Shown: positions 39,156 to 46,969 of the stretch, one piece after another
Position numbering within the stretch: position 1 is the stretch's first letter
Layout of the letters: every line of letters begins with the position of its first letter
The notes under the pieces: generated by a model
Told to the model about the DNA's origin: nothing
Database searches by the model: none
The model's input: the letters and a program-made list of their open reading frames with translations, nothing else
Made by a program: the position numbers and the translations under genes
Sequence record: OM386655.1
Length of the DNA stretch: 64,000 nt
Strand: one strand, 5' to 3'
Source: Escherichia phage vB_EcoM_ESCO10

Positions 39156-40966
39156 TGAAACAAGAATTAAAAATAGGCCAGGCCGTTGACGATGGCTCCG
39201 GAGATTACCTGCGTGCAGGTGGTCTAAAAATCAATAATAACTTTAATGAGTTATACTATCAATTAGGTGATGGAGATAATCCTCACGCGGCTGGTGCCTG
39301 GAAACAATATTCTACTGCAGATGGTCCTTTACTTAATGCTGTTATGGGTCATAGCTATACGTTGAATACCCAAGGTGGAAGGATTAACGTTCAGCTTCCT
39401 AAAGGCACCCCTTCAGAGTATAACTTTGTAATTCGTTTGCGTGATGTTTATTCTTCTTGGCAAGCGAACCCTGTAACAATTATACCTGCTCCAGGCGATA
39501 CGATTAAAGGCTCTGCTGTTCAAGTTGAAATAGCACGTAATTTCGCTGACCTTGAACTTGTTTATTGTGCTCCAGGGCGTTGGGAATATGTTGAGAATAA
39601 GCAAGTTAACCGTATCCCAAATAACGACCTCGCTACTGTAGCAACCAAACAGTTTATTGCTACTGAAGGTCAAACTGATTTCTTGGATATTTTCCCAGGA
39701 TTGACCTATAATATTTCTAGTCTTAGTGTAATTCAACGCGGTAACACCCTGTTTTATGGTGTAGATGATATATTTGATGAAGCCACTTCAGAGTTTGGTA
39801 GCCCAGGCACTAACCCGGGTGAATTGGTTGAATTGAATGGTAAAGATATCCGTTTGAAATATCCATGTGAAGCCGGTGATACAGTAATCATTAAATCATA
39901 TAATGATGGGTTGGCTCAATGGCGTAGTTCTTACAATCGTCGTGATATTACAATTTTAGATAAAGCTTTGACTCACGAAACATCAGTCAATGGTTCTAAA
40001 ATAGTATTAGACCTTTCTACTATACAAACCATTACAGCAGTAGAATTAAATGTTTCTCCTACAAGCCCTATTAACCCTAATGCTTGCCAGGTAATGCTTA
40101 ACAGTACATTAATGCATCAAGCAGGCACCGCAGGTTATCCAGCATTTTATTGTGAAGGTGTTGATACGGATGATGCAGGCCTTTGTGCTGATTCAGGCGG
40201 CGTGTGGACCCAATCTAAATCTGATTATATTTTGAATATTGCAGATGACGATAAAATTGAATCATTCGAATTTGGACGTAAATTAGAACATGGTGATATC
40301 CTTACCGTAATTTGGTACAATAATGATATTGGTACTACCATGACTATTGACGAGATTTTAGATACTACAAATGATATCTACATTTCTCAAGGACCTTCGG
40401 TGTCTTTAACAGGACAAGTTCGTATTACTGACGTAGATAATCCGTTTTCTCCTAACTTTGAACCGGTGGCAGAATCCGAAGTTTCTATTAATACAGCTGC
40501 AGTTATGTTTGATTTGTTCCACCCAATAGGGACGATTTATGAAAACACCGTGAACCCTAATAACCCTGCAACTTATATGGGTATGGGCAGTTGGAAACGT
40601 TTATCAGATAGTTTCCTTGTAGGTTGGTCACCAGATGCAGATTCGTTGTTCAATGCGAACAATAATGATTTGGATTCTGCAGGTGTTCCGCAGTCTACTG
40701 CAGGTGGTACAGGTGGCTCTCATAATATTTCTATTAAGTATGAAAACGTTCCTGAACTTACTACCGATGAAAAGGTTCTTGTTGCTGATGATAATGGTAC
40801 TGTGGTTGTTGGTGGCTGTTTGGTTGACCCGGATGCACAAGGCCCTGCTTATACTAAATATCGTGAAGATAATGCCACGATTAATAAACAACAATCTACC
40901 ACGCCTATTCCAATTGGTACTTTGCCTCCATATACAACCGTTTATCGCTGGGTGAGGATTGCGTAA
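39155..40966 (+). CDS. 10: gp10 baseplate wedge / pin protein
   Basis: 603 aa (T4 602); synteny. Confidence 0.9.
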   Translation: MKQELKIGQAVDDGSGDYLRAGGLKINNNFNELYYQLGDGDNPHAAGAWKQYSTADGPLLNAVMGHSYTLNTQGGRINVQLPKGTPSEYNFVIRLRDVYSSWQANPVTIIPAPGDTIKGSAVQVEIARNFADLELVYCAPGRWEYVENKQVNRIPNNDLATVATKQFIATEGQTDFLDIFPGLTYNISSLSVIQRGNTLFYGVDDIFDEATSEFGSPGTNPGELVELNGKDIRLKYPCEAGDTVIIKSYNDGLAQWRSSYNRRDITILDKALTHETSVNGSKIVLDLSTIQTITAVELNVSPTSPINPNACQVMLNSTLMHQAGTAGYPAFYCEGVDTDDAGLCADSGGVWTQSKSDYILNIADDDKIESFEFGRKLEHGDILTVIWYNNDIGTTMTIDEILDTTNDIYISQGPSVSLTGQVRITDVDNPFSPNFEPVAESEVSINTAAVMFDLFHPIGTIYENTVNPNNPATYMGMGSWKRLSDSFLVGWSPDADSLFNANNNDLDSAGVPQSTAGGTGGSHNISIKYENVPELTTDEKVLVADDNGTVVVGGCLVDPDAQGPAYTKYREDNATINKQQSTTPIPIGTLPPYTTVYRWVRIA

Positions 40967-41631
40967 TGACTTTAACAGAAATGAAAAGCGGGTTAAAATC
41001 CCGCCTTGCCGACTTTTTAGAATTTTCTTTTACAACTAATCAACCTGCCGCTGTGGCAGGTCAACGCCCTATTGGTGGACCGTCAGCAAACCAAACCCGA
41101 AAAGGTGTTTATTATCCTACGGTCCAAAGCGCTATTGATGATATTGCTTTCCGCGCAGAACTTCCTGTTAATGCAGTGATAACTACTACTGAAAACAGAG
41201 CACCGGGTTTTATCCAACAATCAGATAAATTAACTTTCTCTGGTTCCATTTCTTCCGGTGGCGAATTAGGCGATACGGTTATAATTAAGGTATTTGGCCT
41301 ACCGGTAGAAGTTATTGTGGGTGATTCTTCTGTTCTGGTTGCTTCTAAAGTTAACGATGTTTTTATAAGCGCTATTGCTAATAGTTATATTTTGGCAGAA
41401 ACCTCTATCGACCCTCTGGACCAATCTACTTTAAACATTAAATATAACGACTACCAAAACCATATTTTTGAGCCATTTAAACAAGCAGGATGTACCATTT
41501 CCCAAACCATAGTCCAAGAGCCTCGTGCAGGTTATGGGTACTGGGAATATTTAGGTTCTACTACAGAATCTATGACTGGTGGAACTATAAATGGAACAAC
41601 AACTTTATATCACTATAAGCGAGTAAGTTAA
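40966..41631 (+). CDS. 11: gp11 baseplate wedge / short-fiber attachment protein
   Basis: 221 aa (T4 219); synteny. Confidence 0.85.
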   Translation: MTLTEMKSGLKSRLADFLEFSFTTNQPAAVAGQRPIGGPSANQTRKGVYYPTVQSAIDDIAFRAELPVNAVITTTENRAPGFIQQSDKLTFSGSISSGGELGDTVIIKVFGLPVEVIVGDSSVLVASKVNDVFISAIANSYILAETSIDPLDQSTLNIKYNDYQNHIFEPFKQAGCTISQTIVQEPRAGYGYWEYLGSTTESMTGGTINGTTTLYHYKRVS

Positions 41632-43163
41632 TGTCTACAAATACACTAAAACATATAAGTGATAAATCAGAATTTAAAACATTCGACCCTACTGGGTCGA
41701 ATTTTGACCCCAGTATTACCAACGTCCAAGACGCATTATCATCCATTTCCGCTATAGGTGTTACAGGTGATATTCCAGCTGCATCTGAAACAGAACAAGG
41801 TATTATTAGATTAGCCACCCAACAAGAAGTTATTGATGGTACTGATACTTTCACTGCGGTGACCCCTGCTACTTTAAAAGGACGCTTGGATATCCCTACT
41901 CAAGCAACAGAAACTTATGTAGGTATTACTCGTTATGCTACTAATGGCGAGGCCATCGCCGGGACAGAGACCCAGGCTGCAATCGTAGCATCATCTTTGA
42001 AGGCTACTATAGATTATACATTCACTAATCGTTTAGCCACAGAGAACACTACAGGCGTACTCAAGATTTCAACCCTGCCAGCGGCTTTAGCGGGTACAGA
42101 TGATACTACGGCTATGACACCTCTGAAAACCGCACAGGCAATTGGAGCTGCTACATCGGCTTTACCTACTTATGCAAGTGCCACGCAAACCACTGAAGGT
42201 ATTGTTAGAATCGCAACAAATGCTGAAGTGGCAAACGGTACATTGACCAATGGTGTGGCAATTTCTCCTTCAGGGTTAAAATCCCTAACTTCTACCCAAG
42301 GACGTGCAGGTATTATTAGATTGGCCACTCCACAAGAAGCTTCTGCCGGTAGTAATTCTAATATAGCTTTATCTCCTTCAACTCTTCTTTCTCGTACTGG
42401 TACTACCGGAAGGGTTGGTGTTGTTAAATTGACTACCACGGTAGGTTCTGGTGACGGAAGTACAGCATTGGCATATAATGCTAACGTTATTTCTACCACC
42501 GGCGGTACTATTAATGGTACTTTAAACGTTAATGGTACTTTACGTCGTAATGGGCGTGATGTTGTTACTGTCGACCAATTAAAAGATTCTGTTCCTATTG
42601 GTACTATCGTTATGTGGGGAGGCCAAATTAATAATATCCCTGCAGGTTGGGCCGTTTGTGATGGCGGTAACTCTGGTGAGCAAGGATTCCGGAACGTAGT
42701 TGGTAGTAAATGGGGTTCAACCGGTGCTCGTCCTGACTTCCGTGGATTATATCCTAGAGGTGCAAACCAAACTAATGACGGTGGATTAAAAGAATGGGAC
42801 GCTAACGTTAGAATCAGAGACGCCAAAGGTAACGACGCTAAAGGCAAACCTAAATTGGGTGTTGGTGTAGGCTCTTATGGTCATGGTACTGTACAAGCTC
42901 AACAACTTCGTTTCCATAAACATGCCGGTGGTTTTGGTGAGCATGATAACTCAGGTGCTTTTGGTAACACGGTTCGTTCTAACTTTGCAGGTACTCGTAA
43001 AGGATTGGACTGGGATAACCGTTCTTACTTTACAAACGAAGGATACGAAATTGACGGTTCAGGTTCACGAGATTCAAGAACCACCCTAAATAGTGAAGGG
43101 TTAATTGGTAACGAAAACCGTCCTTGGACTATGTCCATTCTATTCATTATTAAAGTTGCTTAA
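41631..43163 (+). CDS. 12: gp12 short tail fiber
   Basis: 510 aa; about six ~35-aa fibre repeats (GIIRLATQQEV..., GIVRIATNAEV..., GIIRLATPQEA...); synteny. Confidence 0.85.
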   Translation: MSTNTLKHISDKSEFKTFDPTGSNFDPSITNVQDALSSISAIGVTGDIPAASETEQGIIRLATQQEVIDGTDTFTAVTPATLKGRLDIPTQATETYVGITRYATNGEAIAGTETQAAIVASSLKATIDYTFTNRLATENTTGVLKISTLPAALAGTDDTTAMTPLKTAQAIGAATSALPTYASATQTTEGIVRIATNAEVANGTLTNGVAISPSGLKSLTSTQGRAGIIRLATPQEASAGSNSNIALSPSTLLSRTGTTGRVGVVKLTTTVGSGDGSTALAYNANVISTTGGTINGTLNVNGTLRRNGRDVVTVDQLKDSVPIGTIVMWGGQINNIPAGWAVCDGGNSGEQGFRNVVGSKWGSTGARPDFRGLYPRGANQTNDGGLKEWDANVRIRDAKGNDAKGKPKLGVGVGSYGHGTVQAQQLRFHKHAGGFGEHDNSGAFGNTVRSNFAGTRKGLDWDNRSYFTNEGYEIDGSGSRDSRTTLNSEGLIGNENRPWTMSILFIIKVA

Positions 43164-43172
43164 GGAAATAAA

Positions 43173-45335
43173 ATGATTGACAAACTGAGTATTAAAGAAC
43201 TTCCGTTTGTCGATGGTGTACCTGATGCATCCCAAGAGCGTATCCGTTGGATACGCAATGGTGAATGTATTGAAGGAGCCACGACTAAATACGGCCACGA
43301 CGGTAATTTGAATGCTCCTGCTTTAGGAGTACAAACTAACGTAGTTAGATTAGAAGAAAACGGCATAGCTTCTAAAGACAAAATTAATGAGCTTGTAGAT
43401 AACGTTAATTTAATTAATGAAGCCCTGGATATTTCTACTGATACAGCTGTTATTCAGCAAATTGAAAAGAACCGTGTCGATATATTGGCCGTAGATGAAA
43501 AGGCTTCCGAGACTAAAAAGGAATTAAGTGACTTAACAGTTAATTTTAATTTTTTAGAAGAAGACGTCGGTTATTATGACCCGACTTTAGATGGTCCATA
43601 TCTCACTGTTAGAGAAAATATAAATCTTCTTAAATCAGAAATTGGTCATTATGCAAACCAAGATATAAACAGTCAGCCGCTTCCTCCGGGTGAAACTTCT
43701 GAAGCCACCGGTATGAAACGCCGTATTATGGATAATACCAGTGCTATTGTCGACCATTCACAACGTATAGATACCCTTGAAAAGAATTATGAAGATTCTG
43801 ATGTAGGTCAACTCGGGCTTAAACTTAACGAAATTCGTGAAGAACTCGGTCCACACATTGATACGGTAGGTAAACAACCCGCTTATACTAGAATTTCCAC
43901 TCTCGAGACGGCGGCCGTAAGCTTTAACGAATCTATAGATTCTATCAAATCCAGCATAGGCTTTGATACGGGTCCTATTGATACCAGAGTAACTACATTA
44001 GAAACTAAAACATCCGTCCTAGAAAACACCGTTAATAACAGTTTGGTCCCTAGGGTTACTGCAGTAGAAACTGCCATCGGTGCTGCCGATACCCCTACTT
44101 CTATTAATGGCAGATTAGGTGGCTTGCGTACTGATGTTAACGAGTTAAAAACTATAGTTGGTGCTAGTTCATCTGAAGGGCTTCGTTTTCAGGTTTCTGA
44201 TATAGATCGTAAAATCGGCGCTGACGTAAGCCCAGCGGCCGGAACTATCAATAAACGTTTGAACGACCTTACAACTCAAGGTAATACTTCAGCCTCTACT
44301 ATTCAGGATTTGCAGGCAGAAATTGGTAATAACCAGACAGGTATCAAAGGTTCTATTCTTAAAATCACCAACCAAGTTGAAGGAACAAACCCCAACGGTA
44401 GTACTGTAGAAGAACGAGGGTTAATAAACTCTGTTAAAGGCCTTGAAGCTCAGATGACTACAAAATTGGGCGAAGCACCGACTGATGGTAAAATGTACGG
44501 ACGTAAGGATGCAGCATGGACTGAAATTCTTGACAGCACTACAGAGGTCGATGCGGTAAAAGCTTCTTTATTGGTTACTGACGGTAAGGTATCAGCTTTA
44601 ACGGCTAGAGTCGATACTAATGACGCTTCCATTTCTTCTCTTGATACCAGAACAGGTGCTTTAAACACCTCAGTAGGAGAAATTAAAGCCGATATTGTTT
44701 TGTTAAAATCTAAAGATACGGAGCAAGATAATCGTATTACTGCTTTGGAAGAAAGTGACGTAACAATTAATGGCAAAATAACGGCATTAGAAACCAAGAC
44801 CGATACCACTGATTCTGACGTTACTGCTTTGGCTTTAGATGTGAGTTCTATAGAATCACAATTAACTCCTATTAAAGCCGATATAAGCAAGAATAAAGGT
44901 GATATCGTTACTTTAACAGGACGAGTAGCGGCTAATGAAGGTGAAATTACTGATATTAAATTAGATACCGCTAAAATAACTCCTTTAACAACTCGTGTAA
45001 CCACAGCTGAAGGTAAAATAACTACCCTTGAAACGGGTTTAGCCGCAGTTAAAGTTGAATCGGATAAAGTAGCAGGAATTGATACCCGTTTAGGTACGGT
45101 CGAAGGTAAAGTTGGTACTCTTGAAACAGGTTTGGCTGCAGTTAAGGTCGAATCTGATAAAGTTGCTGATTTAGGGACCCGTTTAACTGCTGCTGAAGCA
45201 AAAATTACTGCTTTAGAAACAGAATTGACCAAACGTCCACCTGCTGCCCCTGTTGCAGACGGACTCCCGTATGTTCTGGTTGATAACGCATGGGTATTAT
45301 TGTCCGATTTTGTGACTTTAAACCCGGCACCATAA
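43173..45335 (+). CDS. wac: fibritin (whisker antigen control), elongated
   Basis: 720 aa coiled-coil protein; C-terminal foldon-like ...YVLVDNAWVLLSDFV; T4 Wac is 487 aa. Confidence 0.8.
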   Translation: MIDKLSIKELPFVDGVPDASQERIRWIRNGECIEGATTKYGHDGNLNAPALGVQTNVVRLEENGIASKDKINELVDNVNLINEALDISTDTAVIQQIEKNRVDILAVDEKASETKKELSDLTVNFNFLEEDVGYYDPTLDGPYLTVRENINLLKSEIGHYANQDINSQPLPPGETSEATGMKRRIMDNTSAIVDHSQRIDTLEKNYEDSDVGQLGLKLNEIREELGPHIDTVGKQPAYTRISTLETAAVSFNESIDSIKSSIGFDTGPIDTRVTTLETKTSVLENTVNNSLVPRVTAVETAIGAADTPTSINGRLGGLRTDVNELKTIVGASSSEGLRFQVSDIDRKIGADVSPAAGTINKRLNDLTTQGNTSASTIQDLQAEIGNNQTGIKGSILKITNQVEGTNPNGSTVEERGLINSVKGLEAQMTTKLGEAPTDGKMYGRKDAAWTEILDSTTEVDAVKASLLVTDGKVSALTARVDTNDASISSLDTRTGALNTSVGEIKADIVLLKSKDTEQDNRITALEESDVTINGKITALETKTDTTDSDVTALALDVSSIESQLTPIKADISKNKGDIVTLTGRVAANEGEITDIKLDTAKITPLTTRVTTAEGKITTLETGLAAVKVESDKVAGIDTRLGTVEGKVGTLETGLAAVKVESDKVADLGTRLTAAEAKITALETELTKRPPAAPVADGLPYVLVDNAWVLLSDFVTLNPAP
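45027..45212 (+). repeat. tandem 93-bp (31-codon) duplication inside wac
   Basis: cttgaaacgggtttagccgcagttaaagttgaatcggataaagt... at 45027 recurs at 45120 with few substitutions; protein TLETGLAAVKVESDKVA twice. Confidence 0.8.
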
Positions 45336-45336
45336 T

Positions 45337-45358
45337 AAAAGGGCTTCGGCCCTTTTTT
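45337..45358 (+). terminator. rho-independent terminator after wac
   Basis: AAAAGGGC-TTCG-GCCCTTTTTT. Confidence 0.75.
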
Positions 45359-45360
45359 GC

Positions 45361-45368
45361 TATAAATA
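45361..45368 (+). promoter_or_regulatory. late promoter (TATAAATA) for gene 13
   Basis: Exact TATAAATA 21 nt upstream of ATG, directly after the wac terminator. Confidence 0.65.
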
Positions 45369-45389: not shown

Positions 45390-46322
45390 ATGGCAAGCGA
45401 ATCATTTAACCCTAAGCAACTCAAGGACGCTATCCTGCGCCGCCTGGGTGCGCCGATTACAAATATTGAAGTAACTACAGACCAAGTATACGATTGCATC
45501 CAGCGAGCCCTAGAGCTCTACGGTGAGTATCATTATAACGGGTATAACAAAGGCTATCAGGCTTTTTATATCGGTCATGACGATGAAGAAAAATTCCGTA
45601 ATGGGGTATTTGACCTTAAAGGCCGTAATATATTTGCAGTGACACAAATTTTGAGAACCAATGTAGGTTCTTTAACATCTATGGATGGGCAAGCAACTTA
45701 TCCATGGTTTACTGATTTTGTATTAGGCTTAGCAGGTATTAATGGCGGGTTAGGGTCTTCGTGTAACAGTTTTGGACCTAATGCCTTCGGTGCTGACCTT
45801 GGTTATTTTACCCAACTAATGCAATATCGTTCTATGATGCAGGACCTTTTGGTTCCACTACCTGATTATTGGTATAACGACGCCACCGAACAGTTGAAGG
45901 TAATGGGTAACTTTGTTAAAGGTGATTTTATTGTAATTGAAGTTTATACTCGCTCTTTTAATGGAGTGGATTCTATGGTAGGAAATACCGTAGGATATGG
46001 TTATGCTTCATCTTGTGGTGAAGATGCATGGAGTCCAGGTGCTGTTTGGGATAATCCGGCTCGTCGTATTTCTGGTATGCGTGTAGGTGAGGACCTTGGT
46101 CTTCAAGATGGTGCATATAATAACCGTTGGGTTAAAGATTATGCTACTGCATTGGTTAAAGAAGTCAATGGTAATATTTTAGCCAAACACCAAGGCATGC
46201 AACTTGCAGGTGGAACCACCGTAGATGGTATTCGATTGATTGAAGAAGCTCGTTTAGAAAAAGAACGTCTTCGCGAAGAATTGGATTTACTCGACCCACC
46301 AACACCTATTTTAATTGGATAA
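45390..46322 (+). CDS. 13: gp13 neck protein
   Basis: 310 aa (T4 309); TATAAATA late promoter and GAGGAA SD. Confidence 0.85.
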
Positions 46323-46324
46323 TT

Positions 46325-46969
46325 ATGAACTATAATAAGATTTACAAATCTTTAATAAATAAGGGCCTCGAAAGAGGTCTAAATAAAAAGAAGGTAGGGT
46401 TTTATACAGAGAAGCATCATATTGTCCCTAAATCCATGGGTGGTAGTGAAGACAAATCTAATTTTGTTCTTTTAACCGCTAGAGAACATTTTGTAGCTCA
46501 TCAATTATTGTATAAAATACACAAAAACCGTTCTATGGCCCATGCTATGATTAATATGTGTGCTGATAGCACAGGTAATAGGGTTAATTCTAAGTTATTA
46601 GATTGGCACCGTAAAGCTAAGGCTAAGGCCCAAAGTGAGATGGTTTCAGGTGAAAACCATCCTATGTATAACAAGAAACATAAAAAAGAAACATTAGAAA
46701 AAATGAGATTGGCCAAATTAGGCGTCCCATGGACTGAAGAAGTTAAGGAATCTAGAAGAGAAGAATTACTTAAAACCTCTGAACACGCTAGGACTTTCAT
46801 CGACTATAAATCTGGCGGAGAAAATCCAGCCGCAAAGAAAATATGTATAGAAGGTATAGTATTTGATTATATGGAAGAAGCGGTTCCTTGGTGTAATATA
46901 ACAAGAAGAACTCTTTTAAATAGAATCAAATCTTCAGACCCTAAATGGAGGGATTGGAATTATGTCTAA
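46325..46969 (+). CDS. HNH homing endonuclease (free-standing)
   Basis: H-N-H motif region [31 protein letters not shown]; inserted between genes 13 and 14, which are adjacent in T4. Confidence 0.75.

Follow-up and report, generated by a model that had tools for sequence, protein, structure and literature searches.

The wac gene of Escherichia phage vB_EcoM_ESCO10 (OM386655.1) very probably encodes a JS98-type fibritin, in which a T4-like fibritin that includes its foldon is followed by a coiled-coil spacer of variable length and by a second foldon. Both this architecture and its length variability have already been published, and the present protein is an ordinary member of the type. The JS98-type fibritin was described by Letarov's group (Letarova et al. 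2013, Ecol Evol, PMC3797505) as having two T4-like foldon motifs and a coiled-coil spacer whose length varies; the same authors consider the T4 and JS98 types interconvertible by a single deletion or duplication, and describe T4 and JS98 fibritins as trimerising unaided through the small foldon motifs alone (PMC3797505). That JS98-like fibritins vary in spacer length is stated in that paper, which cites Latypov et al. 2007 on JS98C3 (PMC3797505). A literature search on fibritin repeats and coiled coil in Dhakavirus returned nothing beyond PMC3797505. The finding carries little weight as a discovery, given that near-identical proteins are already annotated as fibritin. The features discussed below (Table 1) lie in a window of 64,000 nt, which is the whole stretch of DNA that was analysed.

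Table 1. Features of the wac region, with positions in the window
Feature	Position	Strand	Remarks
GP11 ORF	40966-41631		Upstream of wac; Pfam GP11
gp12 ORF, short tail fibre	41631-43163		Upstream of wac; Pfam gp12 domains
Shine-Dalgarno-like AAGGA	43162..43166	+	6 nt 5' of the wac ATG; sequence reading
wac CDS	43173..45335	+	720 aa plus stop, ATG start; very probable JS98-type fibritin, neck collar/whisker protein
N-terminal neck-attachment domain, ~aa 1-50	43173..43322	+	Aligns with T4 Wac from residue 5-6; attachment role per PMC3797505
Segmented coiled-coil shaft	43323..44468	+	Collinear with T4 Wac residues ~50-434
Internal foldon-like motif GEAPTDGKMYGRKDAAWTEIL, aa 433-453	44469..44531	+	Where T4 has its terminal foldon
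Coiled-coil spacer, aa 454-686, 233 aa	44532..45230	+	Between the foldon motifs
31-codon unit 1 TLETGLAAVKVESDKVAGIDTRLGTVEGKVG, aa 618-648	45024..45116	+	TRF, repeat search, translation
31-codon unit 2 TLETGLAAVKVESDKVADLGTRLTAAEAKIT, aa 649-679	45117..45209	+	TRF, repeat search, translation
C-terminal foldon-like domain APVADGLPYVLVDNAWVLLSDFV, aa 692-714	45246..45314	+	BLASTP, AF2
Intrinsic-terminator-like hairpin AAAGGGC-TTCG-GCCCTTT with T run	45338..45358	+	Directly after the wac stop; GC-rich; sequence reading, predicted
T4-type late promoter consensus TATAAATA	45361..45368	+	5' of gene 13; pattern search, sequence reading
gp13 neck-protein homologue	45390-46322		Downstream of wac; 310 aa; position and size as annotated gp13 in relatives

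Genomic context

The wac reading frame is continuous, without interruption in the ORF list, and sits between gp12 and gp13 in the order found in T4-type phages; the list contains no additional ORF between wac and gene 13. The same gp12-wac-gp13 position, together with the N-terminal domain and the T4-collinear shaft, is found in the JS98-type fibritins of JS98, JS10, IME08, dhabil and other Dhakavirus phages. At the nucleotide level wac is 92.6% identical to its counterpart in dhabil, where it is annotated as a fibritin gene, 92.5% to that of CLB_P2 and 92.4% to that of dhaeg, while at the protein level Wac shares 95% identity with dhabil Wac and 72% with JS98 Wac. The 13 kb on the 5' side of wac show about 93% identity to the same three phages, dhabil, CLB_P2 and dhaeg, so that the window belongs to a T4-type coliphage of Dhakavirus-like character. 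The AAGGA ahead of wac overlaps the gp12 stop codon (43161-43163), and the TATAAATA motif ahead of gene 13 is one which we take, as established knowledge, to be the T4 late promoter.

A complete T4-like fibritin followed by an extension

T4 Wac has a full collinear equivalent in residues 1-453 of the present protein. The protein matches the T4 fibritin entries 2bsg/3j2o with an E value of 7e-72 (phmmer), and a single unbroken phmmer alignment joins query residues 6-432 to T4 residues 5-434, so that homology extends over the T4 Wac N-terminal domain and the segmented shaft alike, as in JS98-type fibritins. Residues 6-84 also match the PDB fragments of the fibritin N-terminus, 1ox3/2ibl (phmmer, E~1e-14), and the invariant columns of this portion in an alignment of 45 sequences include P11, P17, Q21, R23, W26, T38, G41, G44 and N47. 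In an AF2 model of one chain, for which a 45-sequence alignment served as input, the shaft helices are broken by loops. The confidence of this model is modest (mean pLDDT 70.8, pTM 0.21), as is to be expected when an obligate trimer is modelled as a monomer.

The T4-like part includes the foldon. Pfam Fibritin_C, a family that describes the C-terminal region of T4 fibritin with the foldon included, matches Wac internally, at aa 373-452 (model positions 4-90 of 93, 2.8e-22), and a second phmmer domain pairs aa 416-450 with the foldon region of T4 (residues 442-478). Because of this internal T4-foldon match we read the protein as a full T4-like fibritin that is followed by 233 aa of extra shaft and a second foldon-like domain. 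T4 fibritin itself (gpwac, 487 aa; PDB 2BSG, 3J2O, 1AA0, 1AVY, 1OX3) is homologous and collinear over aa 6-450, and shares with the present Wac the neck location in the gene order and a foldon at the equivalent position. It differs in stopping just past that foldon, as a T4-type protein does within about 10 residues, whereas here aa 433-453 are followed by 267 residues that comprise the 233-aa coiled coil, the second foldon and a short tail. The sequence-only reading had reported a product of 720 aa against 487 in T4 and a foldon-like C-terminus; both are borne out, the first by the T4 fibritin chains in the PDB, which Wac exceeds by 48%, and the second by the terminal foldon comparison given below. 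It had overlooked the internal foldon at aa 433-453 and with it the two-foldon architecture.

The two foldon motifs

Each polypeptide carries two T4-like foldon motifs, both with the DG, Tyr and Trp motifs and a hairpin as judged from the sequence and from the low-pTM monomer model. The internal motif GEAPTDGKMYGRKDAAWTEIL is identical to the T4 foldon at 10 of 19 positions (BLASTP, E=3e-7) and retains its Glu, Ala-Pro, Asp-Gly, Tyr, Arg-Lys-Asp and Trp; a beta-hairpin, E442-445/E448-451, is predicted there at a pLDDT of about 55-65. The Trp of this motif is residue 449 in all 12 Dhakavirus Wacs compared, and its AP-DG-Y-R-W pattern is retained in double-foldon fibritins from several genera. 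The terminal domain APVADGLPYVLVDNAWVLLSDFV has 14 of 26 residues identical to the T4 foldon over aa 689-714 (BLASTP, E=9e-8), and its predicted hairpin, E700-703/E706-709, is followed by a short helix. It differs from the T4 foldon in a 1-residue insertion and in the replacement of the Glu/Arg pair by A and L, and it is near-identical across the 12 Dhakavirus Wacs.

Double-foldon fibritins extend beyond this genus. The extension matches 93 phage records in a tblastn search, and proteins of this kind also occur in Gaprivervirus Bp7, Enterobacter phage CIP9, Serratia phage CHI14 and Yersinia phage P8 (558 aa), and on numerous metagenomic contigs. Those with a short spacer, of about 27-90 aa, share both motifs and the T4-like part with the present Wac but are without the 31-aa repeat array (AnYang, fDHCT2 and JS98-C3, 514-515 aa; Bp7/Gaprivervirus, 529; CIP9, 548; CHI14, 584); the JS98-C3 wac entry EU224420 was placed in this short class by a nucleotide search. 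In the fibritin P0038 (607 aa) of Escherichia phage EcS1 foldon-like motifs likewise stand as internal modules, after a TVEERG segment, the difference being that six of them follow one another in close tandem and that there is no long coiled-coil spacer.

The coiled-coil spacer

The spacer is predicted as two nearly continuous helices, at residues 455-596 and 599-686. Its heptad a/d register, which conforms to that of a coiled coil, is mostly steady over aa 451-590 and is then shifted by +3 on three occasions, near aa 595, 617 and 655. Each 31-residue module amounts to four heptads plus three residues (31 = 4 x 7 + 3), which fits a +3 register shift, that is, one stammer-like discontinuity per module. 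At about 0.15 nm per residue we estimate the contribution of a fully helical 233-aa spacer at some 35 nm. Several coiled-coil Pfam families scored in the protein and were discarded as coiled-coil noise, namely DUF7310 at aa 450-506, whose 37.3 bits fall short of a cut-off of 40, and HMMR_N, CENP-F and others, all under their own cut-offs.

The extension can be aligned collinearly, though weakly, with aa 175-454 (identity 20.7% in 290 columns; E~8e-7, composition correction switched off). Such a match hints at an old duplication of half the gene, a reading which we did not retain as a firm one, the composition bias of coiled coils being too strong.

The 93-bp repeat units

The spacer contains a tandem repeat with a period of 93 bp (TRF: 45009-45185, 1.9 copies, score 226, 78% matches, 2% indels; repeat search: a 93-nt pair, family D3, at 44991-45176), and it is far above chance: the best identity at lag 93 is 69 of 93 positions, against 39.4 +/- 2.5 and a maximum of 48 in 500 codon shuffles. 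Shorter coiled-coil motifs recur as families D1, D2 and D4 at 61-74% identity, in agreement with the shorter segment repeats that had been noticed from the sequence. The same reading had described the 93-bp repeat as a near-perfect tandem duplication. Two in-frame 31-codon units are indeed present at 45027-45119 and 45120-45212, but they are not near-perfect copies, since they agree at 67 of 93 nt (72%) and 21 of 31 aa. Complete identity of the protein is limited to a 17-aa core, TLETGLAAVKVESDKVA (aa 618-634 and 649-665), and even there the DNA shows several synonymous differences. The 31-aa duplication is also a small share of the added length, the extension past the T4-equivalent foldon being 267 aa.

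Compared with the other phages, unit 1 is nearest to unit 1 of MX01 and to the last unit but one in JS10, IME08 and B-01 (89-91% nt identity), while unit 2 is nearest to the last unit of most relatives (MX01, JS98, IME08, JS10, CLB_P2, dhabil and B-01, 87-89%) and stands at about 81% to the last unit of VR5 and dhaeg. Units inside one genome are 67-83% identical, against 87-91% for positional counterparts between phages. The duplication is thus old, because either unit resembles the equivalent unit of other phages more than its own neighbour, and judging from these identities the units are diverged paralogues that are positionally orthologous across the genus. The repeat region of the present phage is nearer to units of the MX01/JS10 type than to those of dhabil. 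In number of units (two here, against three in JS98, four in JS10 and IME08 and one in dhaeg) the differences are allelic only.

It could be argued that wac has simply been lengthened by a recent 93-bp slippage duplication peculiar to this phage, which would make the gene hypermutable in the manner of a contingency locus. A tandem repeat of period 93 and a unit copy number that varies between relatives are what such an event would leave, but it is very improbable here: recent slippage would give near-identical adjacent DNA copies, while the two units have diverged to 72% identity, down to synonymous changes inside the 17-aa core, each has 87-91% identity with the unit at the corresponding position in other phages, and dhabil and MX01 have an equal two-unit layout. 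That the extra length is an artefact of assembly, to which repeats are liable, or a fusion of two ORFs is scarcely credible, considering that units which are 28% diverged are unlikely to collapse or expand in assembly, that the reading frame is uninterrupted, and that the same architecture has been found in at least 11 independently sequenced phages, with 720 aa in three genomes.

Length variation among Dhakavirus fibritins

The wac genes of 11 relatives were compared with that of the present phage, giving 12 Dhakavirus Wacs. Their lengths are 514 aa in AnYang, 515 in fDHCT2, 689 in dhaeg, 720 in this phage, dhabil and MX01, 751 in JS98, 768 in VR5, 772 in CLB_P2, 799 in IME08 and JS10, and 827 in B-01. 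Both foldons are common to all 12 and only the spacer differs in length, measuring 27-28, 202, 233, 264, 281, 285, 312 or 340 aa, which is the variable coiled-coil spacer of the JS98 type. The series 202-233-264 corresponds to one, two and three units of 31 aa, and the remaining lengths to whole units together with partial units of 7, 14, 17 or 24 aa.

The pair dhabil and dhaeg isolates a single step of this variation. dhabil has the two-unit layout of the present phage, as does MX01, and its wac agrees with that of dhaeg at every position of the 1851 nt on the 5' side of the unit region and the 126 nt on its 3' side; the sole difference between the two genes is exactly one 93-nt unit. The single unit of dhaeg is a chimera, its 5' half corresponding to unit 1 of dhabil and its 3' half to unit 2, with the switch lying within the shared GAATCGGATAAAGT, and it is this chimeric structure that points to an unequal crossover between the two. 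Length change through recombination between units is, from the evidence of these sequences, still ongoing. The proneness of wac to length variation that had been suspected from the repeats is therefore supported, by relatives of 514-827 aa that differ unit by unit and by a pair that stands one 93-bp unit apart; a uniform length among related phages, without repeat expansion, would have spoken against it, and the lengths compared are not uniform.

Whisker length, tail fibres and the role of each foldon

In T4 the N-terminal domain anchors the fibritin trimer to the neck, and the whisker aids attachment of the long tail fibres and keeps the fibres retracted (PMC3797505). The sequence-only reading had conjectured that a change in whisker length could alter fibre retraction. 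The fibre genes do not follow the whisker. The gp34-gp35-gp36 block, which encodes the proximal half-fibre and the hinge, measures 5716-5905 nt in all compared phages, whether their Wac has 514 or 827 aa; it comes to 5750 nt both in C6, whose Wac is short, and in IME08, whose Wac has 799 aa, and the two blocks are 95% identical. Whisker length is thus unmatched by fibre length, given the constancy of this block, which at the level of gene sequence argues against a tight coupling of whisker length to fibre geometry. Either the whisker may be flexible, with the terminal foldon finding the knee of the fibre, or the internal foldon may serve as the T4-equivalent node.

The internal motif might be what is left, in decay, of a former C-terminus or of an old duplication of half the gene, and now form no more than part of the shaft, leaving the terminal foldon alone to trimerise the protein and contact the fibre; the whisker would then simply be longer. 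Where the T4 foldon has VLLSTFL as its final strand the internal copy has TEILDST, AF2 confidence is low at this motif, and the weak similarity of the extension to aa 175-454 would fit an old duplication. We nonetheless regard a relic as rather unlikely, since AP-DG-Y-R-W, including the Glu/Arg pair and the core Trp, is kept in genera whose overall identity is no higher than 40-50%, W449 keeps its position over a more than tenfold range of spacer lengths, and phages with a short spacer retain both motifs merely 27 aa apart. The conservation across such distant genera argues that the internal motif would be a functional fold. A possible reading, if a less probable one than not, goes further and takes the internal foldon as the T4-equivalent registration node and fibre docking site, with the spacer and the second foldon forming a distal arm that would have a separate role, such as contact with the distal half-fibre, with another part of the virion or with the environment. 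It would agree with an internal foldon that in every relative is as far from the neck as the foldon of T4, with the constant length of the gp34-36 block, and with the serial foldon motifs of EcS1 P0038, up to six, by which foldons appear to serve as internal modules; on the other hand, conservation within the genus is higher for the terminal foldon than for the internal one, which would also fit fibre binding by the terminal foldon on a flexible whisker.

For the JS98-type fibritin of the present phage, the following mechanism can be proposed by analogy. The N-terminal domain would anchor the trimer at the neck, the foldon motifs would nucleate and register trimerisation, as extrapolated from T4 and from biochemical work published on JS98, and the distal coiled coil would lengthen the whisker, by about 35 nm if it is fully helical. 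The fibritin would help in long-tail-fibre assembly and keep the fibres retracted. As the compared sequences show, members of the genus gain or lose whole modules or parts of them through homologous (unequal) recombination, resulting in spacers of 27 to 340 aa. More speculatively, and in our opinion improbably, the whisker could consist of two parts, a constant proximal part up to the internal foldon that docks the fibre knee and a distal antenna of coiled coil, with the second foldon as its cap and a separate role. The length of such an antenna may be reset in quanta of 31 residues by recombination between diverged modules, and its role may be, for example, to touch the distal half-fibre or to sense the surroundings; a Wac of 514-827 aa set against a constant gp34-36 block would be the signature of a whisker in two parts.

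The mechanism of length change in wac is documented here to the nucleotide level, with dhabil and dhaeg as a clean natural example. The use of foldons as internal modules is of possible interest for engineers who employ the T4 foldon as a trimerisation tag. For the biology of these phages, whisker length as given by Wac covers an approximately 1.6-fold range within one genus, without a compensating change in the proximal fibre and hinge genes, and the respective roles of the internal and the terminal foldon thereby become a testable question.

Genes neighbouring the fibritin gene

An ORF for a 214-aa endonuclease of the HNH/NUMOD3/I-TevI-DNA-binding type follows the gp13 neck-protein gene and overlaps the start of gp14 by 8 nt. 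In a megablast search of phages its sole match was vB_EcoM_FB, with 99.2% identity over 645 nt at the same site. The genome around the ORF shows only about 93% identity to its nearest relatives. The gp13/gp14 site lacks it in dhabil, dhaeg, CLB_P2, IME08, JS98 and JS10, and the ORF has the appearance of a homing endonuclease gene acquired by recent transfer.

Features considered and their window coordinates
Feature	Position	Strand	Location
Endonuclease ORF	46325-46969	+	between gp13 and gp14
3′ 500 bp of wac	44823-45335		

Over the whole window the motif TATAAATA occurs in 16 copies against about 8 expected, and downstream of 28900 11 of the 12 copies lie on the + strand, a bias that fits late promoters of the T4 type serving the structural gene cluster.

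Length and conservation of fibritins

The short wac forms of AnYang, fDHCT2 and JS98-C3 lack, as a single block, the counterpart of aa ~469-680 of the ESCO10 product. At their junction VKASLL[V/E] is joined to AEGKITALETEL, and both foldon motifs are kept with only 27-28 aa between them. The gp34-gp36 long-tail-fibre block (IME08 152104-157853 and its homologues) is of near-constant length, 5716-5905 nt, in phages whose Wac proteins range from 514 to 827 aa.

Other architectures were observed among the fibritins retrieved by protein search. The 607-aa protein of Escherichia phage EcS1 (P0038) is an extreme multi-foldon fibritin, with a tight tandem array of six foldon-like motifs (…APxxGKxYVRKxxAW…) at residues ~430-607, C-terminal to the conserved TVEERG segment. 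A metagenomic fibritin of 644 aa (P0037) carries a repetitive long coiled coil of VSALETSNT-type units from TVEERG to its one, terminal foldon and is without an internal foldon. Here a long whisker has been reached independently, by a different route.

Compared with MX01, the 3′ 500 bp of the ESCO10 wac gene is 84-92% identical and the remainder of the gene only 57-76%. Either genus-wide conservation is far stronger in the distal spacer and terminal foldon than in the T4-like shaft, or recombination exchanges these distal parts.
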